A stretch of DNA of 64,000 bases from Escherichia coli. GTDB taxonomy: Bacteria; Pseudomonadota; Gammaproteobacteria; Enterobacterales; Enterobacteriaceae. A program made the translations under genes and the position numbers. Below, one piece after another: positions 17,267 to 33,463 of the stretch. The DNA lies in the NCBI RefSeq assembly GCF_024298765.1, contig NZ_CP101210.1; one strand, 5' to 3'. Positions within the stretch are counted from its first letter, which is position 1. The number at the start of each line of letters is the position of its first letter. The notes beneath the pieces were generated by a model. The model saw only the letters and a list, made by a program, of their open reading frames with translations. It had not been told where the DNA came from and did no database searches.

Positions 17267-18817
17267 TTACACTGTGTTTCTTATCGGTTCAAGATATCCA
17301 AATGCATCTCTGGAAAACTTAAGCATAAAATTTTTCATATCAGAAATTGCTTCTTGTAAAAAAAGGGGATCATCGCCATGATTATCCAGCAGGATGGCAA
17401 TTTTTTCGCACATATTCTCTTTCCTCAGCTCTTCCCTGGGTTGCAGCCTTTTCATGGTATGATGTTCAATTTCTTTCAGGAGTAATGAGGCATTTATCTG
17501 ACGTCTGGTACTGCCTTGCGTCAGCCAGTGGATGGCCTGGGAAAAACACTGTTGTGCAACGGTGAAATAAACATCATTCTTGATGCTACTATTCAGTGCC
17601 TGCTTTTGATTATGCCTATGATGGATTAGCGTCACAACCAACTTTTGCAATGGTGAACCATCCTGATTGACAATATCTTGGGCATGTGATTTCTCGCAGT
17701 ATTGATTGAGTAATGCAACAAAACTGTTAACCAGTTCTTTCAATATATCAGGTATCTCTTTTTGTGTTATAAATTCTCCAGGAATACCCAACAGTTCTAG
17801 ATAACAGTAATAACATGCTTCATGAAAAGTTTTCTGAAATATCTCCTCAACCTTCAAACGGGCTGCAAGAGTGAAGTCAGGGTCAAACATATATTTTCCG
17901 ATATACAAGCAGAGATCAGACAGCCCTTGCATAAGTACCATCGGTTCTTTTGCCAGTTCAGCTAATCTTAGTTTATACCCAAAATCAGCTGGGGAATCTC
18001 CCGGAAACAGACAACTGAGTCCGCTAAAATCCATTAATCTGCCATCCATTGCAATATTAGAAGGAGAAGTTGTCAATCTCAGGAAACGTGTTCGACAAAA
18101 TGCCATTTGCCAGGCCTCACGACGTGCCAGTTCACATAACCCCTCAATGCAATAAATCCGGGGATCAGTTCGTGCTTCAGCATCAATTTCTTCCGGTGGT
18201 ACAGGTAGATATCCTGGCAGCTTGTGGATCACAGATCTAACCCGACAGGCATCGTGAATTAACAGACTGGAATACTCCGGTTTTACTTGGAAGTAAGGTG
18301 CCCGTTCAAAATGCGCCGGACGAACAACAGGCTCACGTACCAACAGGGCTCTTCGTGATTTCCTACCGGAGCGCTCAAATGCCTTTTCAGTATAGAGATC
18401 TGTAAGTAAAACCGCCCGAACCCGCACAGCACTATAAGGTAATATTTGAGCCAGTACTTCTCCCCACAAAGCCTCATATATTGCATGAACAGCGCCGAGT
18501 GCACCATTAGAATGACGTTCGTCAGTACCTTCGCCAACCAACGGATTACTTCCTATTCCTTTAACCTGGTAGTTACCATCAAACCCACAACGTGCACCAC
18601 CTCCATTACGCTGAATACCACTGCCACCATAGCGCTCTGCATGGAACACTTTGGCAGAAGCTGTACTGCCAGGATCGATAATATAACTGCAGGCATTTTG
18701 CAGCTCGTCTGGATTTCTGACATCCTCTGCACACCAGATTAATGAGGCCTTGATCTGCCTGGCAGTGAAAGGCACCAGGTTTTCATTCAGTTCAGAAAGT
18801 GAACACTGATGACTCAT
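17267..18817 (-). CDS. mchC: Microcin maturation protein MchC (MceJ-like)
   Basis: 516-aa ORF with ATG start, immediately downstream of mchB in the mchIBCDEF order. Confidence 0.8.
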   Translation of the reverse strand: MSHQCSLSELNENLVPFTARQIKASLIWCAEDVRNPDELQNACSYIIDPGSTASAKVFHAERYGGSGIQRNGGGARCGFDGNYQVKGIGSNPLVGEGTDERHSNGALGAVHAIYEALWGEVLAQILPYSAVRVRAVLLTDLYTEKAFERSGRKSRRALLVREPVVRPAHFERAPYFQVKPEYSSLLIHDACRVRSVIHKLPGYLPVPPEEIDAEARTDPRIYCIEGLCELARREAWQMAFCRTRFLRLTTSPSNIAMDGRLMDFSGLSCLFPGDSPADFGYKLRLAELAKEPMVLMQGLSDLCLYIGKYMFDPDFTLAARLKVEEIFQKTFHEACYYCYLELLGIPGEFITQKEIPDILKELVNSFVALLNQYCEKSHAQDIVNQDGSPLQKLVVTLIHHRHNQKQALNSSIKNDVYFTVAQQCFSQAIHWLTQGSTRRQINASLLLKEIEHHTMKRLQPREELRKENMCEKIAILLDNHGDDPLFLQEAISDMKNFMLKFSRDAFGYLEPIRNTV

Positions 18818-21337: not shown

Positions 21338-22612
21338 ATGATACCTATGAAAAACTATCTTTTCCAGACTCCCGAAGATATTTGTGTACAGTTAAAAAAA
21401 ATGACACATCCTGTCACAATAAGAACAACAGATATTGCTAATTTCTGGCACTATCTTGAGTCAGCAACACTTCCAGTGATCACAAAAAGCACCACTACAG
21501 AAAATCGGGAGGTTACATTTCTGTGGCGCTCAGAGAAAGCACTGCAAGGCGTATATCTTCGCCTGAATCGTGTTACAGATAAAAAAGACGTCAAAAAAGG
21601 ACTAATGACTCATATCCCTTCGACAGATATCTGGATGCTGACACTGGTGTTACCAGCTTCATATCGGGGCTCATACTCATTTATAGAAATTCCCACAGAT
21701 ATGACACAAAAAGACATATTTCAACTAGGAAGTCGCTTCTCTCCATTACCCGGTAAATCTGATCCATTTAACAAAACAGCAGAAATAAATATACGAGGAT
21801 TCGGAGAATCAGTCCTTTCTCTTGATATGGCTCCTGAACAAAAGGAATGGGATGATACTTCCCATAAATGTACAGGTATTCTTTCAATATTACATTCCTT
21901 TGTTGCAGGATATCAACGCCGGATTCGTTTATATTTCCCCCTGAATCCAACATCAGTACCTCTTGGATTACTTGTGTTACCTGATGCTGAAACATGGTTT
22001 GACCGGATAGATATTACCCGGGCATTAGATATGGCCATCACCACTGGTCGTATCACGCCAATGGCAATTATGGGGATAGACAATATTAATGAATCTGATC
22101 GTATGAATATACTGGGAGGCAATAAAGAACTCATCTTTGATATAGCGGAAAATCTGATACCCCAGTTATACAGAGACTATCCGGATATCGTATGGGCTGG
22201 TCGCTCTAATACTGTACTGGCCGGGCAGAGCCTCGGTGGAGTGACAGCACTGATGGCAGCTATATATGCGTCGACAACATTTGGTACAATCATTAGTCAC
22301 TCACCTTCAATGTGGTGGAACCCTGACCAGGGCAGCCCGATCTTGTTTACTGAGAATAATACCTCCTGGGTAAGTGAGCAGATACTTTCAGCGCCTCCGA
22401 AAGATGTAAATATCCGACTTGGAGTCGGTTCTTTAGAAGGTACAACCGTCTCACATGTTCAGCGATTGCATCATTCGTTAATCGCAGCTGGTTTGGAAAG
22501 TAACCTCACTGTCTATACCGGTGGTCACGATTATGCTTGGTGGCGCGGAGCAATTATTGATGAATTAGCAAATTATAATTGCAGGAAGGTATCAAATAAT
22601 AACTCTGTGTAA
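21338..22612 (+). CDS. mchS1: Enterobactin/salmochelin esterase homologue (IroD/Fes-like)
   Basis: 424-aa ORF with serine-hydrolase motif GQSLGG; position between mchS2 and mchA in the H47 locus. Confidence 0.8.
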   Translation: MIPMKNYLFQTPEDICVQLKKMTHPVTIRTTDIANFWHYLESATLPVITKSTTTENREVTFLWRSEKALQGVYLRLNRVTDKKDVKKGLMTHIPSTDIWMLTLVLPASYRGSYSFIEIPTDMTQKDIFQLGSRFSPLPGKSDPFNKTAEINIRGFGESVLSLDMAPEQKEWDDTSHKCTGILSILHSFVAGYQRRIRLYFPLNPTSVPLGLLVLPDAETWFDRIDITRALDMAITTGRITPMAIMGIDNINESDRMNILGGNKELIFDIAENLIPQLYRDYPDIVWAGRSNTVLAGQSLGGVTALMAAIYASTTFGTIISHSPSMWWNPDQGSPILFTENNTSWVSEQILSAPPKDVNIRLGVGSLEGTTVSHVQRLHHSLIAAGLESNLTVYTGGHDYAWWRGAIIDELANYNCRKVSNNNSV

Positions 22613-22753
22613 AATATCGTTTTATCGTCCGATAACTCTTTCTGCAATATTATTATGGGAGACTGTCTCATTTATTTAGTGATGTCCTTCATTTATGTGA
22701 TGAAGGACATTATATTACTCATAACATTTCTCGTTGAAAATTTCAGCAATACG

Positions 22754-23878
22754 CTACAATTGTTTCCCGTTGTTTTTTAATTTTCTCATCAAAACCTCTG
22801 CGATCTCTGCAGGAGTGGGTTGTTCAGCCATTTCAGCGGCTACCTGATCTGAACAGAAGCGTAGTGAATCATCATAAAGCAGGCGATTTACCAAATCACT
22901 GGTCAGTCCATGCTTGTCCGGAATAATCCCACACCCACGCTTCGCAACAATTTCTGCATTAACAGAGCGATCTGCACCTTCTCCAAACACAATCTGTGGT
23001 ATTCCACTATACAGCGCTGTCAGGGTATTACCTGCGCCACCGTGATGAATAAATCCATCAGCTCCATTAAGGAATACACCCATAGGTATCCAGTCAACCA
23101 GACGTACATTTGATGGTAGTTTTCGTAATCCAGTACGAGCATTTATTGCAAGTTGCAAAATGATATCAGCATCAACTTCATTTGCTGAATCCATAACCCA
23201 TGAAATCAGCTCCAGACCATCAACCATTGGTTTTACAGTGCCAAGGCTGATGAGTAAACGTTTCCGATCAGAATCCCTGTCCCACCATGTTTCCTTTACA
23301 GCACCTCCGTTATAAGGAATATATCGCATTGAGATAATCGGTTCTTCAGCATTTTTAAGAATGCTCATACTTGGGGGAGCAACATCAATCCATGCTAAAT
23401 CACATAGTGGACCGCTGACTCCATGCCGCCTGTAAGCATTGCTTAAAGAACGGTTTAACATCTGAATATGGGCAGATGTATGCGCGAATCCAACAGCCAG
23501 CATCACTGAAGAAATTCTATATTTAGCAGCAACCAATGGGCCTGCCGGACCAAGCGGGGGATAGACTATTAAATCTGGCCTCCATTTTCCTGCAAAATCG
23601 ATGAGGTTATCTGCCATTTCATCGCTAAAAAAAGAGAAATGACCAATAATATTACTTTTTTTCCTCAACTCTTCCTGATGACGATATCCAGCCTCTGAAT
23701 CTAAACTTGGAGCTGCATCAAAAACAACCAGTCCAGCTTCTGCTGCTTTATTCGCGAATTTGCCAGCGCTACTAATTACTACATCATGTCCGATTACACG
23801 AAAGGCCTGAGCCAGAGAAATCAATGGGTATAACAAACCGTACAGCGGAGGGCCAATAAAAAGAATACGTTTTCGCAT
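22754..23878 (-). CDS. mchA: Enterobactin C-glycosyltransferase homologue (IroB-like)
   Basis: 374-aa GT-B glycosyltransferase-like ORF (MRKRILFIGPPLYGLLYP..., C-terminal HHGGAGNT nucleotide-sugar motif). Confidence 0.85.
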   Translation of the reverse strand: MRKRILFIGPPLYGLLYPLISLAQAFRVIGHDVVISSAGKFANKAAEAGLVVFDAAPSLDSEAGYRHQEELRKKSNIIGHFSFFSDEMADNLIDFAGKWRPDLIVYPPLGPAGPLVAAKYRISSVMLAVGFAHTSAHIQMLNRSLSNAYRRHGVSGPLCDLAWIDVAPPSMSILKNAEEPIISMRYIPYNGGAVKETWWDRDSDRKRLLISLGTVKPMVDGLELISWVMDSANEVDADIILQLAINARTGLRKLPSNVRLVDWIPMGVFLNGADGFIHHGGAGNTLTALYSGIPQIVFGEGADRSVNAEIVAKRGCGIIPDKHGLTSDLVNRLLYDDSLRFCSDQVAAEMAEQPTPAEIAEVLMRKLKNNGKQL

Positions 23879-24554
23879 TAAAAAAGTCCGTCTTCTGCTT
23901 ACCTGTTTATTTTTCTATCGCTAAGAAAACATAATTAATATTATTTTTATGTGAGCTTATGCACAAAAATAACAAAGTATCTTATCTTCTGGTAGAGATA
24001 CAGGATACAGTTTGTAGGAGCTTTCTTTTTTTGAACAATGATTTGCAGGACAGTTATGCCAACCTAGCAGAATCAGTATCACAACAATAAATGACAGATC
24101 ATACCTGAAATTTGAATTAACAGGCATCATGAATGTCAATAGTCTAAGCGGTTACTACTTACATCGCTTGCATAAATACTAAACACTGACTAGAAAAGTA
24201 TTGGATAACCCCGTCACTAAAAGTAACACTTCGGTTATTTGCTCGGAATGTATCAACGCCAAGATTGTTAGCCGTTACGCCTTATATCACTGGCGCTGAC
24301 AAATGTTTCTTTTCTAATTTACTGAACCGGCGCAGACTTACAGAAAAACACTCCGGCACCGGTGTAATGCCAGTTATAAACAATGTGAATGGAATGACGA
24401 ATCAGTCAGGAAAGAGCTACAATCTGCTGGCTGACCGGAGAGGGTCAGCAGGAAGATGAACGGTAATGTCGCCAGCACCAGGGGCAGGGCCGGGTTCCAC
24501 AATACCAGCGCCGGCATTTTGCACATTGCCAGCGTACCGGCATCACAACACGTT

Positions 24555-24791
24555 TCATGCAGCTGCTCCTCGTGATTCCTCAATTCGCTGCTGCATCCAC
24601 TGCTCCACTTCACTTTTGTACCAGCGGCTGCTGCGGCCCAGCTTGATGGGTTTCGGGAAATGGCCTTCACTGATCAGCTTGTAAAACCATTTATCTGTCA
24701 TACCGGTGAAACTGGTGATGTAGTTCATGTCGATCAGGGGATCGTCGGCACGCAGCAACACGCAGTCGTGGCCTGTCATTGAGGTCAACAT
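24555..24791 (-). CDS. alpA: AlpA-family phage/island transcriptional regulator
   Basis: 78-aa ORF with the AlpA-type HTH signature ...ISEGHFPKPIKLGRSSRWYKSEVEQW. Confidence 0.75.
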   Translation of the reverse strand: MLTSMTGHDCVLLRADDPLIDMNYITSFTGMTDKWFYKLISEGHFPKPIKLGRSSRWYKSEVEQWMQQRIEESRGAAA

Positions 24792-24859
24792 GGTCAGAAT
24801 ATCCTCTGTGAGATTTATGAAGGTTGTGCGAATGCGGGGAAAGGTGCTGAGCCGTATTC

Positions 24860-25567
24860 TCAGAACGGTCCTGCAGATCCGGGATAGCCGGGATTACCGG
24901 CGAGGCAACGGGCTTCCGGATCGCACACACCACGACGATCGCGGGCGAAATCACTGAACGCCCAGATCAAATCTTTGAGGATGTCTTCGCAGTCCGGTGA
25001 ACGACTGTCCAGCACCACATCCCGGGTTATCTGTTTCTGGTACGGTGCCGCTTCCCCCGGTGACGCGAAGCCCAGTACGTTGCTCCAGGCATCCAGAATC
25101 AGCCGGTCCAGTTCGGGGCCGTCGAAATACTCCTGTCTGACGCACAGCACCACGTGGTATTCCGGCTTTTCCGGATGACGGGTCAGGAGCCAGCAAAGGT
25201 CGCGTCCGGGTTTCGCATTCATCAGCGCACTGACGGTTTCGATAAAATCCATACCAAACCAGGTCTGTCTGCTGTTGAAGGCGTTGTCATGTTCCCACGG
25301 CAGACGAAGCAGGATCCGCCGTATCCGTGAGCCGGACTGCTCACGCAGCGCACGCTCAAGGACGCCGATGACTTTGTTCTGATAAGATGGCCAGAAGGGT
25401 GCCAGGCTATAGTCGAAATAAGGAATAGCATTCATAAGATATGTTCCGTTATGCGCAGCCCACAATGCGTCCTGCCCGTGAATGAGCTGACGTGTTATGG
25501 CTTGCGGATGAGATTGATGGAATAAGTGAAGAACTGAAGCAGAACGGGAAGATAAGGGACAGAACAC
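24860..25567 (-). CDS. Inovirus Gp2-family (YfjJ/YagK-like) protein, paralogue 1; start uncertain
   Basis: Similarity to the two other paralogues in the window; track start is GTG, first in-frame ATG is at 25435 (MNAIPYFDYS...). Confidence 0.55.
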   Translation of the reverse strand: MFCPLSSRSASVLHLFHQSHPQAITRQLIHGQDALWAAHNGTYLMNAIPYFDYSLAPFWPSYQNKVIGVLERALREQSGSRIRRILLRLPWEHDNAFNSRQTWFGMDFIETVSALMNAKPGRDLCWLLTRHPEKPEYHVVLCVRQEYFDGPELDRLILDAWSNVLGFASPGEAAPYQKQITRDVVLDSRSPDCEDILKDLIWAFSDFARDRRGVCDPEARCLAGNPGYPGSAGPF

Positions 25568-25681
25568 CGGATTCAGGTTCAGGATGAATGATCTCCGTTG
25601 ACTTCAGTTCACATCATTAATCAATGCGGTAAGTTTTTACCGACGGAGTGTTTCCAGGAGCGGAGGCTCAGGCCTTAAGCT

Positions 25682-26248
25682 TCAGAAGTGAGGCTTACGA
25701 GGACGCCCTGCAGCAGGACGTTCAGGAACTTCATTGCAGCCGTAGGCACACAGCCCGTCTTTTTGTTCTTCTTTCGCCAGATAATGCAGGGCACCGCGAA
25801 TATTATCGATGCTTTCAGGATCGTTGTGGCGCACAGGAATGTTGATGTTGTATGCATAATGCGGCTGATATGTACAGCGGTGCGCCGAACCACAGTTATA
25901 CGTAATTGCCTGCCAGCATTCCGCTATCCGCTCCGCAAAGGGATATATTTTTTTAACCCTCTGACGATCGATCCAGAAAACGACATGCGCATGAAAACCA
26001 TGATCAGCCGTCCATTCAATCACCCAGAAGAAACCAACGATATTTTCAAATTGTTCCACCTGCTCCAGCAGCATACGCAACTGTAATTCAAGCCAGCGAT
26101 GATCAGGTTGTAAGAAATCGGGCGTATCTTTCCTGTAGAAGAAATCCATCCGTAAGGCCCGCAGGCAGGAATAGCGTGCCATCATTTGATTGATGTGATT
26201 GTCAAGTAAAGCGGTAAAAAACCAGTTTGGTGTGTAAGATTTAGGCAT
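25682..26248 (-). CDS. Inovirus Gp2-family (YfjJ/YagK-like) protein, paralogue 2
   Basis: 188-aa ORF with family-typical core (...GFFWVIEWTADHGFHAHVVFW...); tandem with paralogue 1 downstream of alpA. Confidence 0.6.
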   Translation of the reverse strand: MPKSYTPNWFFTALLDNHINQMMARYSCLRALRMDFFYRKDTPDFLQPDHRWLELQLRMLLEQVEQFENIVGFFWVIEWTADHGFHAHVVFWIDRQRVKKIYPFAERIAECWQAITYNCGSAHRCTYQPHYAYNINIPVRHNDPESIDNIRGALHYLAKEEQKDGLCAYGCNEVPERPAAGRPRKPHF

Positions 26249-27665
26249 GTTGATGACTCCTGAAAGTTAATGATGTTTTAAGCTCTGTGAGCGAATTAAT
26301 GCTTTCGCTCATAATCAGATCTAAAACGGTAATAACTTACAGATGGTATTTATCAGGCATGCTGTAACAGAATGGATACGACGGATTATTAACGACACAC
26401 AGCGTTGTGCTGAAGGGTATGAGTTATCTGATGGCATTGTCTATAGAGATGAGATAAACGAGGTGCGAAGAAAATACAGATTCAATACAACACAGTGAAA
26501 TACAGAAAAATACGAACTGTAATCCCGCTGCCAGGCGGTTAGGAAACATATTACAACTATAAGCTCATGATTTGTAAATTTGCTCTCAGTGAGTCTGAAA
26601 AAACGTTTATAAGGTCACCACAATAAACTCACACGCGCTTATTCAATCTGTTTTCCAGGATATGAACGTTAACGACACACGATAGCATAAGACAACATAC
26701 AATGGATGAATAATTTTCACCCAGTACCTTAAACAATACAACCGGCAACAAATATAATCAGAAATTCACTCTGTTAATTCTGTTGTTTATCCTGCGCTGT
26801 TAAACATGACGGAATCATGGATACCTTATCAAAGAGTAAACATTCAGTTAATCTGTGATGACAGAGAAATTGTTTCCAACCAGAATAGTTAAAACACTTC
26901 AGATAAACAATCATTGTTAAGCAAATACAGTTCATGATGGATAAGATTAAAATCAATTGCTGTTTCACTGAAAATGAGAACAGATGGATATCAGCAATAG
27001 CGTAGTAGAGAATAACTTATCCGAACATCATATGAGTTACAGTAATTATGATTGAGGGGGATGGAGTGGATACGATAACAAGAGTAAATAAAGACAGAGT
27101 AAAAGTAAAGGGCAAGTGTAATAATAGTAATAAACCTAAATTAAAATTATCCATGTTTGATGTAAAAATAATAATATACTGACAACCATGAAGGTAAGAA
27201 AAAGAGAGTGCAGGTATCAGGAAGATCTCAGGATATGAAGATTCCCACAGCACAGATTTAAAATTAGTCGAATATAATAAATTTAAAAACCTTAATTAAA
27301 ATGTAATCTCATCCATGGTTAACATGCTCCTGAAAAGGAAAGTTACAAATACCGTATGCTACCAACTAATTACAACAATGATATATGTACATTCAGTAAG
27401 AATACAGATAAAATATTAATACCAACTTCCAGTATCAAGATCGTATCGCGAACTTCAGATGCGCTATGAGGCAGTTCAATTTTTAACTTTCGTTTTCCTC
27501 TTCCTCCCTGGCTTCATATGCATAAGCGACTTGAAAGACCCGATGATAGTTACAATTTCAGGTTGTGGCATGACGATCAATTTGTAACTGAAACAATGAA
27601 CGGTAACGCTGCCATATAAACATCAAAATGCGAGCATTACAGCGACATTGAACCGATTAGATGTA

Positions 27666-28421
27666 TCACTCATAATCAGAACAAGATGATGTATCCTGAG
27701 ATATAAGAAAATCATCAAGAGAACCTCCGGCTTTTATTGCTTCTGCAATAACATTAGGCCGACGACCTTGTCCACTCCAGTACATTGTTTGACCGTTATA
27801 CTCATATCTGTATTTATGCCCTCCTGACACACTTTTTCTGCCTGCCTGTAATTTTTTGCCAAATTCACGTTCGTCGATCATGGTAATGATATAGCGACGC
27901 ATTTCACCCATTCTGAGCTCAATGGCGTCCATCCCAATGAGCTCACCGGTCTTTACCAGACGGTAGTGCTTTGGCCGGTGGGGTTTGGCGGTTCGCTTTT
28001 TGACAAGCAGAGCCTTACCCCGCGAGCTCAGACGTACTGGTACCATCCGCATTTTATCGTGTGCGGTGGCGATCATTCTGCCGATGGTGGAAACACTCGG
28101 GCAGGTCAGATGGCGCTGTGCGCACCAGGGCTTCAGGCGAACAAAAATCTGCTCTTTACCGAGGTTTGGCAGCTCTGTCCTGAGGCGTCGAATCTCTTTC
28201 AGCACATCGGGATGCCAGTGCTTTTTTCGTCGCACCAGAGGTGCCTTACTGTGCGGGATTAGCCCCTCAGGTCCTCCCTTGTTCAGTAACTGACGCCACC
28301 AGTAAAGCGTGCGGCAGGACACGCCAAAGGCTTCAGAAGCCGCAGAAATACCGTGTTTATCCCAGAAGTGCAGAGCCTTCATTCTCATTGTTGCTATATC
28401 AGCCATCACTGAAAGCCTCAA
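27666..28421 (-). mobile_element. IS transposase remnant (IS3/IS481-like N-terminal HTH, truncated catalytic core)
   Basis: N-terminal MKALHFWDKHGISAASEAFGVSCRTLYWWRQLL typical of IS transposase HTH; DDE core begins then is lost to an unrelated C-terminus; track start is TTG, ATG at 28406; no inverted repeats identified. Confidence 0.5.
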
Positions 28422-28899
28422 CGCATAATCGGCCGTTTAGGATAGCCAACCATCAGATGCTGCATTTGCATAGTGCAATCTCCCCTTACTTATCCGGAGG
28501 CAATTGCAATATCTCTGTGAACTTACACACAGGTATAATCAATAAGGGCGTACGGAGATTGCCCGTTATTGCTGCAGGATCGGCAGACTGGTTCCCGTCC
28601 TTGCGCATATAACTGTACAACCACAGAGAAAAGCATCAATGCACGCTTTATGTTGCGTCAGGGCAGCGAACGACTCCTTTTGTTGACGACACATATCACC
28701 TTCTGTACTGCCAATTATGGCATTCAGCGTCTCCCCGAGTTTTAAGCTCCTGCTCTTACGAACCAGCGACAAGCAATAAATAACTATGGCAATGAATCTA
28801 ATAACAGCATAAATATGAGACTCATCGATACTCATCGTGATTAGTATAATCGGGGCAGAATTATATTCACTGTCTGATTTATTATTGAGTTAAATATAA

Positions 28900-29352
28900 T
28901 TAAAGTGTTCTCAAAAGTCTGGCTGGATTACCGGCATACACGCCTTTTACCAGCACGGGCTTTGTAACCACACTACCAGCACCAATCACTGCTCCACTGC
29001 AAATTTCTGTGGTTAAAATGGTCGCTCCGCTACCCACTGTTACAGTGTTACCTAATACGATGCGTATCCAGCTTTCTGCAGAGGCATCGGGACCACCACA
29101 CTTAAAAAGATCATTAGCAAAAGTTACGCCATGACCGATGAAACAGCCATCACCTAAAATGACGTTCTCACAGATGAAACTGTGGGACTGAATTCGGCTC
29201 CGGTTGCCAATGATACATCCCTTCTGTATTTCCACAAAGGGACCGATAAAAACATCATCCCCCAGTTCACATTCATAGAGGTTTACTGGCATGACGACTT
29301 TCACATTTTCACCAAATTTCACATCACGAATGCGGCTGTCAATAACGTTCAT
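28900..29352 (-). CDS. Hexapeptide-repeat (left-handed beta-helix) acetyltransferase
   Basis: 150-aa ORF with repeated [LIV]G-x4 hexapeptide pattern (IGNRSRIQSHSFICENVILGDGCFIGHGVTF...); ATG start. Confidence 0.75.
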   Translation of the reverse strand: MNVIDSRIRDVKFGENVKVVMPVNLYECELGDDVFIGPFVEIQKGCIIGNRSRIQSHSFICENVILGDGCFIGHGVTFANDLFKCGGPDASAESWIRIVLGNTVTVGSGATILTTEICSGAVIGAGSVVTKPVLVKGVYAGNPARLLRTL

Positions 29353-29861
29353 ATCCGTTGTATCCTCCCTCAGGATGATTCTTATCAGAACATTTCACCT
29401 GTCAGAATATTCCCGGTAATGTGATACAAGAGCCAGTCTCACCGGGTACCATGTGTTATTGCTCGTATCCTTTTGCCCGTTACGAGTGTACAACCGGTTT
29501 TATATTTTGCAATCCAGGCCTGTTACACCAGAGCATCCTCTCACTGCCCCCTCACTGGTCAATCCGGGATTCAAAGTCATCCTCCAGCACTAAACCCCAT
29601 ACCAGTCCTGAACCTTCCCTCGCCAGCAGCCAGACTCCTACTGTTCACCACAATCCTCTTCCGTGAATGGCCGTAAGTGCGCAGCACCAAAATAAATCGG
29701 TACTTCCGATGACAGACAGTGAAAGCGTCAGAGAAATATGAACATGAGAATGGAAGCAGATACATGACTTCAGGACGACTTTTTCAGAAAACGAGCTAAG
29801 GGCGTCAGCCAACGACCTTACCGTGGTATACGCTCAGGCGCCGGATGCCGTTTTACCCGGT

Positions 29862-30593
29862 TCACCTGCCATCCAGCAAACGCCCCGGCCCACGACTGCA
29901 ACCATAATTACGTTGCCCGGAACCGTCATGCTGCTTCGTCTCATATTTCACGAGATAACTGGCTCTGTTCCGGGCTTTCTGCATCGCTTCCACATCACCA
30001 CGCTTGATCCAGAGAACAGCGGCTTCACCAGACTTTTTGTCTGAAGCCTTCCAGGTATCAGAACATCCACCCGACAAAGGCGTGTCATCGGAAGAAGGGC
30101 GAACATCAGACGATGCTGGTTTACGGGAAGGCGTCCACCTGGAAAAATGGACCAGGCCATCGCCTTGCCAGGGCTCAAGATGCAGGGCGCTGCACCATGC
30201 CTCCTGGATCATCGTCGCCAGCGAAGACGGTTCGCTGAAATCCCCGAGCGAGCACCAGGTATCTTTGTTGAGCAGTAATATCACGTGATAATGTTTCCTG
30301 CCATACATCTTGCCGAACTCCCGGCACCAGAAATAACCCAGGCTGGTTGCATGCACACGCTGATTGGCACATCTTTTTTTCCGCTGGTAAGCCTGAATTT
30401 TGGCTTTCAGGGATGCAAAAAAACGAGAAATCACCGCTGAATCCGGATCGGGATCCATGATGGTGACAGGCATATACTCAGGGAAACGTAAATCCACCCG
30501 GATTAACGAGACGGCACGGTGCTGCGCCAGGGCACTGTCGAGAAGGCTGTCAAAACGGGATAACCAGTAAGCATTGTGTATTGGTTGATTCAT
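29862..30593 (-). CDS. Inovirus Gp2-family (YfjJ/YagK-like) protein, paralogue 3
   Basis: 243-aa ORF, ATG start, conserved HYHVILLLNKD segment; conserved leader motif immediately upstream (30601-30648). Confidence 0.7.
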   Translation of the reverse strand: MNQPIHNAYWLSRFDSLLDSALAQHRAVSLIRVDLRFPEYMPVTIMDPDPDSAVISRFFASLKAKIQAYQRKKRCANQRVHATSLGYFWCREFGKMYGRKHYHVILLLNKDTWCSLGDFSEPSSLATMIQEAWCSALHLEPWQGDGLVHFSRWTPSRKPASSDVRPSSDDTPLSGGCSDTWKASDKKSGEAAVLWIKRGDVEAMQKARNRASYLVKYETKQHDGSGQRNYGCSRGPGRLLDGR

Positions 30594-30984
30594 GATGAGA
30601 GATCTCCGTTGATTTGGATTGACTTCACATCATTAATCAACGCAGTAAAACTTTACGGCATCCGACATTGAGCAATACTACAACTCTCTGATTAAGAGTG
30701 ATTGAAACGGAACAAACCATCCCGGAACGAAAAGATAATCCTGCACACAGCAGCAAAATACGCAACAACAGCATGAATGGATTTAAAAACGACATGGACG
30801 ACGAGAAAAGTCTGAAGGGAAAAGGAGCCACAGAACATTCGAACAAAACACCAGAAATGCAACCAGAACGCTTCCTGGCAATGCAAATCAACAACAACGC
30901 CAAAACCTACAACTTAATCACACAACTCAATCACGGATGCGAATGACACGCTTAAAACCTGTTTACAGATAACGCCGTAACACG

Positions 30985-31026
30985 ATCATCACCATCACCA
31001 TCACCATCACCATCACCATCACCATC
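30985..31026. repeat. Hexanucleotide simple-sequence repeat (ACCATC)x6 with flanking ATC
   Basis: Read directly: gatcatc(accatc)6ag; no start codon in the poly-His frame (a TAA lies immediately upstream). Confidence 0.85.
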
Positions 31027-31461
31027 AGAATCGATTTTCTCATCCCGAAAATGTTACGTTTCACTACGCACCATAAAAACGATTAACCATCGATAACGTA
31101 AATCTCATCTGAATCAAAACACCAAAACCGTTCATCACACTTTCGCAATGCAAGAAGAAACCTCATGACAAAAAGAATGACCTTACACGGAAAAGAAAAA
31201 CGTCAGGAATCGTTAATGCCTCAATCTGATTGTTATCAAAACATCCAGAAAGTCGTTTAACAGAATCGTCGTAAGCACATCGAAAAGAACGTCAGATTAC
31301 TTCAGGAAAGTTCGGGTTGATTTAGCGTAAAGATACTTTTCTCAAGCTAACGTCGAAACTCGAAATCTCAGGAAAGGTTAAACGTAACATCAGTAAAATC
31401 GAATAGCAGATTGATTGCTTAAACAGAAAGGTTTTACAGCAGCATTAAACTGATTTAGTTA

Positions 31462-31497
31462 ACGTAAAGATTTACTAAACGTAAAGATTTACTAAAC
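31462..31497. repeat. Tandem duplication of a 17-bp unit (cgtaaagatttactaaa)
   Basis: Read directly in the ORF-poor segment; about 100 bp downstream are three spaced copies of acgtgtat(a) (near 31572, 31606, 31636). Confidence 0.7.
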
Positions 31498-32593
31498 TGG
31501 ATGTGTATCAGATCAAACAATGTGTACAGCAATGCTTAATGAAAATACTTGTAGAATTGTTTATGAGAAAGCGTGTATAACACTTACTGAAATGCTTAGT
31601 TAAATACGTGTATGTTTGGTAAAACACTTAAGTAAAATACGTGTATAGTACCATTCCCGACATTCTCAACATCTTCAGACATCCATGCAGACTGAGTGTT
31701 GATTTCAGTTTTTCACGGCCAGCATGGATCTTTACTGTTTAAAAAACATACAGATTTACTCTGAAATTATTTACCCAGGCCTCCCTGAAAAGACCATCCG
31801 GAGCATCCCGTTCGTCAGCTTCCATGTTGTCTTTTACCCCGGAAAGTGATCGCATTTTCCAGCCAGAATGACAGCCATACTGATTATGACGTCTCTCCGG
31901 CCCCTTCACATATAACATTCATGTCAGTCATTTCTTACTGCCTCACTCACCGGAATTCTCCATGCCGGATGAAGCAATTGTTCTGAACTGAGCAGAAGCA
32001 TAACAGCACACAAGGAAACGACTGTGCTATAGATCCTGGAATCAGGATCTTAATGTCAGGAAAACAATGACGACCGGGGATAACCAACAACAACCTGAGT
32101 ACAGAAGAAAGCTTTCCCGCGCACGCCATCATCTTATGTAAGAGGATATGATGCCACCCCCACCTCAGAAGAACCGTCTCCGGGAGAACTTCACTGCATC
32201 CAAAATCCTTTTGCTGAGTTCTCATTCCCCATCATGGCAGCTACAGACATGCCCTGACAGAGCGTATGCGCATTGAGAGAAATAACCATAAATGATGAGA
32301 AGACACTCTATATAACGACAGCATGTTGAGGCATCAAAAATATTCATATAAATATTTTAAGAAAATTTTTTATTGCAAACTACAGGAAATAACATGATGT
32401 CAATATAATTTTTTAAAAAACGTGATATTAATCACATTGTAATTTTCTGTGTTTTTATGTAAATCAGAGAAAAGAGTCCATGAACGTTATTGCATTTTTT
32501 CTGATGTATGGATAAAAGGGGATTCAGGCGAAATTTACTGACAGAGGTGATAAGAGGGGGGTTAAAGAGTTCTATAGAGTTGGTTGTGCATTT

Positions 32594-33463
32594 ATGCCCA
32601 GGGAGTTCATGTCTGTGCATTCACCAGATGAATCTGATCATGTTTTTAGTCGGATGGAATATGAATATTACCGACATAACGATAAATCACCTTCTGTTAA
32701 TGCTGATAATGCAGGCAGAGACGTTGTTCCGGAGTGGGTGCAAAAAGACCCTGTAGCCGCATTCTGGGTATGGATGTTTATATATCATGTTCCTGACAGT
32801 ATTGTCCGACTCTCAGGTGAGCAATATGCAGATTACGGAATTTCCTGTCTGTATGCCAGACTGTTTGCCACAGAAGCAGCTCCAGCTAATCATCAGGCAA
32901 GGATTCGTGTGACGAGAAAATGGCTACAGGAGCTTATAAGGCTAACCGGGACAGAAAATGTATCTGACTTCTTGTATGTCGTTCATTTTTTATGGTCATA
33001 TGCTGAAAAAGTGAACCCCATGACATGGCTTGGTTCCCGGCGGATACATATCAAATGGGCATGGGCGTATCTGCAAAAACATTGCACTGACGAAGAACGT
33101 CACTGTCCTGATATTTCAGAATTTAAAGCTTCAGGGGAGTCACGTCTGTTCATAATAGCTTATGTGCGCCGTGTCTTCATGAAAATCTATTCTGTCGGTA
33201 CTGAACCTCAAAAGTTAAAAGAATTAGTTTATCAGCAGAATGATTTTCTCAGGCGCATGAAGTGCTCATACCAGAAAATGTTCCGGTATGAGAAAACCGA
33301 TTCCCGGGTACAGATAAGTGCCCTGATTTCTCCGGAAGCCAGGAATGCACTCCGGAAAATGGCAAAAAAGAATAATCTGACGCAGGCTGAAATCCTGGAT
33401 AAACTCATCTTATCAGCTGATCGTCTGTTTATGCAGAAAACAGCAGGGGATTATTCCCGTTAA
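32594..33463 (+). CDS. Uncharacterised protein with C-terminal ribbon-helix-helix-like segment
   Basis: 289-aa ORF with ATG start; C-terminal VQISALISPEARNALRKMAKKNNLTQAEILDKLIL fits a beta-strand/helix/helix (CopG/Arc-like) pattern; no other family recognised. Confidence 0.5.
   Translation: MPREFMSVHSPDESDHVFSRMEYEYYRHNDKSPSVNADNAGRDVVPEWVQKDPVAAFWVWMFIYHVPDSIVRLSGEQYADYGISCLYARLFATEAAPANHQARIRVTRKWLQELIRLTGTENVSDFLYVVHFLWSYAEKVNPMTWLGSRRIHIKWAWAYLQKHCTDEERHCPDISEFKASGESRLFIIAYVRRVFMKIYSVGTEPQKLKELVYQQNDFLRRMKCSYQKMFRYEKTDSRVQISALISPEARNALRKMAKKNNLTQAEILDKLILSADRLFMQKTAGDYSR

Follow-up and report, generated by a model that had tools for sequence, protein, structure and literature searches.

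An immobile IS481-family remnant joined in frame to the tail of an H-NS paralogue in a mosaic island of Escherichia coli

Introduction

Ler is an old, conserved and selected regulator of the LEE in which an H-NS-type C-terminal domain is carried on a foreign N-terminus with a coiled-coil of its own. From the transposase side, Tn5 Inh, IS1 InsA and IS911 OrfA are N-terminal transposase derivatives that inhibit transposition and are regular products of intact elements. H-NST, a truncated H-NS of EPEC and UPEC islands, is an experimentally shown antagonist according to the family survey that cites the original work (Williamson & Free 2005, via PMC7544231). Among insertion sequences (IS), the closest named element to the one discussed here is ISKpn28, which has been reported in mgrB disruptions in Klebsiella (PMC6101004).

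The locus described here lies in a stretch of 64,000 nucleotides of E. coli DNA (the window), in which a chimeric open reading frame (ORF) shares features with each of these systems. Like ISKpn28 and its intact IS481-family relatives, it keeps the helix-turn-helix (HTH) modules of the transposase, with N-terminal 184 residues that are ~80% identical to ISKpn28 and 95% identical to the transposase P0003, and its left inverted repeat (IRL) starts TGT… as in intact copies; unlike them, it is a remnant without residues 205-348, the right repeat or a usable natural start. It resembles H-NS and StpA in having a PF00816 domain with a QGR motif and in being 45% identical to the last 55 residues of K-12 H-NS, but it differs from that family in having no PF22470 oligomerisation domain. 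With H-NST, as far as the survey's account of that protein goes, it shares the character of an island-encoded partial H-NS derivative, although H-NST retains the N-terminal oligomerisation half and has no DNA-binding domain, whereas the chimera retains the DNA-binding half. The arrangement of an H-NS-type C-terminal domain on a foreign N-terminus recalls Ler, and the chimera weakly matches the Ler structure 2lev (E 0.0038), but its N-terminus is a transposase fragment gained in one recent accident. Finally, it is like Tn5 Inh, IS1 InsA and IS911 OrfA in being an end-binding HTH transposase fragment without catalysis, and differs from them in that it arose by deletion and bears a foreign DNA-binding domain.

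Results

The chimeric open reading frame

The ORF occupies 27666..28421 on the minus strand, with 251 codons from a TTG start at 28421. From the ATG at 28406 it has 246 codons, and this version is an NCBI 'hypothetical protein' (P0001/EFO1645334.1, one residue apart). The peptide KYRYEYNGQTMYWSGQGRRPNVIAEAIKAGG, which was quoted in a preliminary description of the locus, is present in the 251-residue product. In NCBIfam, the model for IS481-family transposases (NF033577) matches residues 13-184 (E 4.6e-23) over profile positions 2-156 of 284, at 82.1 bits against a curated cutoff of 224, and the Pfam models HTH_28, HTH_32 and HTH_23 match within residues 12-116; no integrase-core (rve) domain was found in the chimera with Pfam. 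Only the first 26 residues of the catalytic core are left. The preliminary description had seen here an IS3/IS481-type transposase remnant with its catalytic core cut off, and the partial profile match and the missing rve domain bear out the truncation; of the two families offered, the NF033577 and ISKpn28 matches point to IS481 (ISKpn28-like) and away from IS3. The same description had the ORF run on into unrelated sequence, which is correct insofar as the sequence is non-transposase, but it is not anonymous, since it encodes an H-NS-family linker and DNA-binding domain.

That non-transposase sequence makes up the last 67 residues. PF00816, the H-NS C-terminal domain, matches at residues 203-240 (45.3 bits against a gathering cutoff of 25.6), residues 190-241 match the C-terminal ends of StpA and H-NS in NCBIfam, and the only structures with sequence similarity to the chimera are the C-terminal domains of StpA (2lrx), H-NS (1hnr, 2l93) and, weakly, Ler. 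The chimera's motif YWSGQGRRP pairs with TWTGQGRTP of the StpA and H-NS structures, so that the Q/RGR motif of the family is present as QGR. The Pfam search found no PF22470, the N-terminal dimerisation and oligomerisation domain of the H-NS family, anywhere in the chimera. A leucine-zipper match (PF13011) scores 15.5 bits, below the 22.2 threshold, and is thus too weak to demonstrate a dimerisation surface.

Base composition supports a chimeric origin: the IS part has a GC content of 0.52-0.54, the hns part ~0.39-0.44 and the flank 0.31-0.38. We rejected the idea of a chance ORF, as two genuine coding remnants are fused in frame; the prior chance that two such remnants join in frame is 1 in 3. 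AlphaFold2 predicts residues 1-115 (the HTH region) confidently, with pLDDT 86-97, while the orphan catalytic-core fragment reaches 53-67 and the linker stays below 50, with a pTM of 0.37. A tblastn alignment of K-12 H-NS reaches 18 residues into the transposase part, which we take as chance similarity.

The IS481-family part

The left ~660 bp of a ~1.1-kb ISKpn28-like IS481-family element are found at 27870..28529 (minus strand), 95-97% identical to two intact copies, of which one (L003) lies beside iroB on a ColV-type plasmid and the other (L005) between yegH and galF. The intact parent has imperfect TGT… terminal repeats and encodes the 348-residue transposase P0003; its length in L005 is 1096 bp. 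Its nearest named relative is ISKpn28, at ~80% amino-acid identity. Against the NF033577 cutoff of 224 bits, P0003 itself scores 220.3 and ISKpn28 234.3. The retained portion comprises the IRL, the 5' leader and the transposase gene as far as codon 204 of 348. The rve domain of P0003 extends over residues 179-271, and the chimera stops at parent residue 204; missing are the right ~430 bp, which include the right inverted repeat (IRR) and encode parent residues 205-348, with two of the three catalytic residues among them.

A search for residual inverted repeats, which the preliminary description had proposed, recovered the IRL, TGTGTAAGTTCACAGAGATATTGCAATTGC, at 28500..28529 (minus strand) with one mismatch. 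The 64-kb window has no 30-mer resembling an IRR, even when 7 mismatches are allowed, so the IRL is the only IS end and the element has one terminal repeat in place of two. The natural start of the transposase gene (tnp) is crippled (28418..28471, minus strand): a 10-bp deletion at 28436/28437 has thrown the ATG at 28471 out of frame, so that it opens only a 17-codon leader, MQMQHLMVGYPKRPIMR followed by a stop. The N-terminal extension concerned stays in frame in ISKpn28 and P0003, and PGAP notes the tnp gene here as 'frameshifted'. The leader ends in TGA, 11 nt before the ATG at 28406. The loss of residues 205-348, of the IRR and of a working natural start codon makes the IS remnant unable to transpose. 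Complete E. coli genomes yielded no empty (IS-free) target site.

The 10-bp deletion is common to the window, strain 042 and the ColV-plasmid copy of the IS (L003 ~3560), and the copy between yegH and galF (L005 ~3075) is without it. Judging from these copies, damage to the IS variant, or its use of the internal ATG, may predate its entry into the island.

The H-NS-family part

The rest of the ORF (27666..27869, minus strand) is the 3' 204 bp of an H-NS-family gene, that is, codons 78-144 of 144 and the stop, which encode the basic linker and the C-terminal DNA-binding domain. The parent is a 144-residue island-borne H-NS-like protein (WP_021559484.1/P0092) with PF22470 at residues 14-76 (33.3 bits, cutoff 24.5) and PF00816 at 96-133, and the C-terminal 67 residues of the chimera are identical to it at 66 of 67 positions. 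An intact copy of the gene is carried by L008, a contig from one sequencing run, whose nt 301-504 are 99.5% identical to the remnant and whose nt 301-1037 correspond to window positions 27869-27133 with 99.86% identity over 737 bp. The native 3' flank of the gene (27133..27665, minus strand) is AT-rich, is contiguous with the gene in L008 and lies outside the scar. Among complete E. coli genomes, 205 contain the 5' half that the window lacks, at 95% identity or more. What has been lost, with the first 77 codons, is exactly the H-NS oligomerisation domain.

P0092 is 45% identical to K-12 H-NS, over the C-terminal 55 residues only. A 2020 survey of the H-NS family admitted only homologues of >50% identity (PMC7544231); the P0092-type paralogue falls outside that survey because it is too divergent from H-NS, and hence it is neither Hfp nor HlpC.

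The island-borne H-NS-like gene has mosaic alleles (L007 5199-5549, L004 5201-5551, L012 6070-6504), and it occurs as a 144-residue form and as a 116-residue form that begins at the equivalent of residue 32, the latter annotated in O157:H7 and many further strains. In ECCRA-119 the two halves of the gene belong to different alleles, the 5' half to one and the 3' half to another (100% vs 87.5% identity). In the 042-type copy of the chimera (L006 5267-5473), a patch of ~45 bp just downstream of the junction differs from the window (window 27750-27862; fusion nt 562-600) by 12 differences including a 3-bp indel; the patch corresponds to the O157-type hns-like allele, the remainder to the window allele, and there are only 24 bp of homology between the junction and the patch. 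By its sequence this mosaic could have come from short-patch conversion or from a mosaic ancestor.

The exhaustive search with the 67-residue C-terminus also returned very long proteins of 801-2928 residues with 8-11 tandem H-NS C-terminal domains, along with many of 170-400 residues with 2-4 such domains; P0134, P0136, P0138 and P0265 are among these proteins. For P0136 and six shorter multi-copy proteins, the repeats were confirmed with Pfam.

The junction

A three-way alignment places the deletion junction at 27869..27870, in frame and with one shared base (C). The IS side reads …ATGATCGACGAA[C]ACAGCG…, the hns side …GATTTTTAT[C]GTGAATTTGGC… and the joined sequence …ATGATCGACGAACGTGAATTTGGC…, and the junction-spanning peptide of the chimera is …YIITMIDEREFGKK…. 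By BLAST against the intact relatives, homology to the IS covers 27869-28529 and homology to the hns-family gene runs downward from 27869; partial matches among 1402 E. coli records all end at the junction base. The breakpoint on the IS side is internal to the element, at ~nt 670, and not at an IS end, while that on the hns side falls at parent residue 77/78, the chimera beginning at parent residue 78. This is a domain boundary in the H-NS parent, and both DNA-binding modules therefore remain whole.

Distribution

A 161-bp probe spanning the junction is matched in 151 of 5426 complete E. coli genomes (about 3%), on the chromosome every time. The junction was not found on any of 72,556 plasmids, and a junction 45-mer was absent from all 100,044 GTDB species representatives. 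Strain 042 and JE86-ST02 have the identical junction on a slightly diverged background, and most copies of the chimera are at least 99% identical. Neither the full ORF nor its last 67 residues, used as queries in word-indexed searches, returned another protein that combines a transposase HTH with PF00816, exhaustive phmmer of 1.84 billion representatives returned no other transposase/H-NS fusion, and a Pfam scan found no transposase HTH in nine of the long phmmer matches. The chimera architecture does not recur outside one clonal event. One identical junction, with no other species, plasmid or architecture, points to a single event, and the economical reading of these sequences is that one ancestral event would have been followed by inheritance and by spread with the island.

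The cluster of P0001 has 635 members, but its size does not give the number of chimeras, as it includes N-terminal fragments of other degenerate IS copies. P0291, P0292 and P0294 are among these non-chimera members; P0292 and P0294 end at a Q97* stop, as in the IS copy of the ColV plasmid.

The surrounding island

The locus sits in a mosaic island adjoining cadC, with microcin H47 genes, a CbtA/YeeU module and two YagK/YfjJ (inovirus Gp2-type) genes, and in related islands too the hns position is flanked on both sides by Gp2-type genes. By identity to ACN002, the window consists of adiA/mel/dcu/cad core genes at ~42300-64000 and the mosaic island. Also in the island, besides the CbtA/YeeU module, are an integrase remnant adjoining cadC, an IS2, a DEAD-box helicase, a type I R-M subunit and a truncated hemagglutinin-repeat (CDI-like) gene with an immunity gene; the microcin H47 genes are mchB (~17753-17980), mchI and mchF. 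There are no tRNA genes in the 64-kb window.

Between a Gp2-type gene and the hns remnant is a 1.4-kb AT-rich stretch without annotated genes (26250-27660; GC 0.31-0.38), which is conserved between islands (92-99.9%) and has only short hydrophobic ORFs, for example 27017-27253 (78 aa). The O157 locus is 92% identical over window positions 24357-26984, and no Rfam family matches at gathering thresholds within 22000-33000. On the other side, the spacer from the IS left end to a hexapeptide acyltransferase gene (28900-29352) occupies 28530..28895, and in complete E. coli genomes it is seen only alongside the chimera. In ESY002, the acyltransferase and Gp2 module (window 28896-30779) directly abuts pseudouridine-metabolism genes, an arrangement that indicates a further recombination or island boundary at 28896.

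State of the reading frame

The ORF is intact in every copy that we read without a further insertion (the window, L001, L006, L009-L011, L014 and L015). In the 042 lineage there is an extra frameshifting insertion of 28 bp after codon 3, in ECC-1470 ISEc52 has inserted into the chimera at ~27979, and some genomes hold only pieces of it (H51, H65). The substitutions derived within the chimera lineages are 4 nonsynonymous and 0 synonymous, namely I122V, R143H and P150L in the window lineage and R144W in L009-L011; between IS lineages, there are 7 synonymous and 3 nonsynonymous differences. The probability that all four derived changes are nonsynonymous is 0.34 under neutrality and 0.004 at an omega of 0.1, and the split between the chimera and the history of the IS gives a Fisher p of 0.07-0.10, the counts in both calculations being tiny.

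A consensus scan found no sigma-70-like promoter upstream of the ORF, and the overall count of matches was at shuffle level. GAGG stands 9 nt before the ATG at 28406, and this spacing, together with the leader stop 11 nt upstream of the same ATG, makes translation plausible.

Annotation of the DNA varies. In ACN002, RefSeq/PGAP treats both halves as pseudogene fragments, and in ACN002 and JE86-ST02 PGAP gives the H-NS part as a pseudogene fragment with no CDS called. Elsewhere PGAP calls an 'H-NS family' CDS from an internal ATG, WP_095516826.1 (71 aa) in ECC-1470 and MSHS 133 and WP_255091497.1 (72 aa) in 042, and an 81-residue call, P0281, is made in complete genomes. We found nothing on the locus in the H-NS family survey (PMC7544231), in a paper on the microcin H47 island (PMC3191183) or in literature searches on H-NS/transposase fusion proteins and on ISKpn28.

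Discussion

The sequences show the anatomy of the locus, both of its parents, the breakpoint, the single origin, the immobility of the IS remnant and the loss of the oligomerisation domain, and it is close to certain that the ORF is an immobile IS481-family remnant fused in frame to the tail of an H-NS paralogue. The insertion or deletion scar suggested in the preliminary description is thereby located, with the deletion breakpoint at 27869/27870, although its supposed borders and age need revision. The AT-rich DNA at 26250-27660, which had been regarded as a mark of the scar, is native flank and backbone beside intact copies of the gene (L008 99.9%, O157 92%), and 28430-28529, regarded as scar-flanking DNA, is the left end of the IS with its IRL. 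The scar had also been called old, but with most copies at least 99% identical it is not very old.

As to how it formed, an ISKpn28-like element of ~1.1 kb would once have lain within the island, upstream of the 144-codon H-NS-family gene and in the same orientation. A single illegitimate deletion, with one shared base at the joint, would then have taken ~430 bp from the right end of the IS, IRR included, all that lay between the IS and the hns-family gene, and the promoter and first 77 codons of that gene. The two remnants happen to be in frame, and so an ORF of 246-251 codons survives. Neither the spacer and acyltransferase flank nor the hns 5' half, used as probes, led to a pre-deletion or empty-site intermediate; they gave only chimera loci or unrelated contexts of the intact gene. 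With no such precursor or empty site to go by, we infer the order of events, IS insertion and then one deletion, from the structure of the locus.

Other routes to the same structure have been considered. A local inversion is disfavoured: BLAST with the full IS and the intact hns locus found neither the missing part of the IS, nor the hns 5' part, nor a reciprocal junction elsewhere in the 64-kb window, where only the IRL is left, and the lack of a second IS or hns piece favours deletion. It might also be supposed that the IS first inserted inside the hns-family gene, at codon 77/78, and that a deletion adjacent to an IS end and a second rearrangement followed. IS elements often promote deletions that begin at their ends, and the surroundings of this one are a patchwork; against this, at least two events would be needed, hns 5' sequence is absent upstream of the IRL, and the IS-side breakpoint is internal (~nt 670), away from the IS ends, so that we consider this course of events very improbable. 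Hardly any weight at all can be given to the proposals that an intact protein of some non-IS family is encoded here or that the ORF is an artefact of assembly. A full-length match to such a family would have overturned the preliminary description, but the sole full-length matches are copies of the chimera in E. coli, and the presence of the junction in 151 independently assembled complete genomes refutes an artefact.

Whether the chimera does anything is a separate matter. In our judgement it is quite probably a non-functional relic that is not maintained for a function, and the absence of a selected function is the likely conclusion from the pattern of substitution and damage, although, given the mostly at least 99% identity among copies, the event is too recent for decay of an unselected ORF to be expected. 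The persistence of the ORF does invite the alternative that it is expressed as a new DNA-binding protein, acting as an anti-silencer or competitor or as an inhibitor of transposition. The HTH would bind IS ends, including its own IRL and the related IS copies of ColV-type plasmids, and the H-NS domain would bind AT-rich minor grooves without oligomerisation, by a logic like that of Ler; inhibition of transposition would follow the analogy of the truncated transposases Tn5 Inh and IS911 OrfA. Besides the intact ORF, this proposal can draw on two complete DNA-binding modules that are predicted to fold, on the break at a domain boundary, on a plausible Shine-Dalgarno sequence ahead of the ATG at 28406, and on the abundance of related IS copies in E. 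coli (1402 records match). It has to contend with a single origin and an architecture that recurs nowhere, with four nonsynonymous and no synonymous derived changes, with a 5' end damaged differently in two lineages and an ORF interrupted or partly deleted in some genomes, with the low confidence of AlphaFold2 for the orphan catalytic-core fragment, with a PF13011 leucine-zipper match below threshold, and with the lack of a promoter match by consensus scan and of literature on the locus in the papers and searches listed above. On balance we regard it as unlikely. Scarcely different is our estimate for a two-headed DNA binder expressed from the left end of the IS or, alternatively, for the knock-out of the island's H-NS paralogue as the selected effect, which we also think improbable.

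A smaller product has been annotated, and one could argue that the real protein consists of the H-NS C-terminal domain alone, 71-81 residues from an internal ATG (MIDEREFG… or MGEMRRY…), which as a monomeric H-NS-type DNA binder would modulate silencing. The calls WP_095516826.1, WP_255091497.1 and P0281 fit this proposal, and in ECC-1470 the short frame is left whole by the ISEc52 insertion. The MIDE ATG has no Shine-Dalgarno-like sequence ahead of it (CGCTATATCATTACC-ATG), however, the consensus scan found no promoter of its own, and PGAP leaves the H-NS part as a pseudogene fragment without a CDS in ACN002 and JE86-ST02; isolated H-NS C-terminal domains, moreover, bind DNA weakly. We rate a functional short protein as highly unlikely.

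Taken as a relic, the chimera is an ordinary genomic scar that is well explained, both halves being annotated as pseudogenes in RefSeq already, and it is of little importance in itself. Its real consequences would then be the inactivation of an IS and of the island-borne H-NS paralogue. The relic shows how an island of the microcin H47 and YagK/YfjJ type near cadC is remodelled, by IS insertion and then, as we read it, illegitimate deletion, and it leaves about 3% of complete E. coli genomes, including that of EAEC 042, without the divergent island-borne H-NS paralogue. It also calls for caution with annotation, in that the same DNA appears as two pseudogenes, as a 246-residue hypothetical protein or as a 71-81-residue 'H-NS family protein', depending on the pipeline and genome. 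The finding would be of broader interest only if the chimera were expressed and active, in which case it would be a natural instance of a transposase DNA-binding domain joined to the DNA-binding domain of a xenogeneic silencer, and such a two-headed binder could relieve the silencing of H-NS-repressed island genes, or inhibit or tether related E. coli IS copies in trans.
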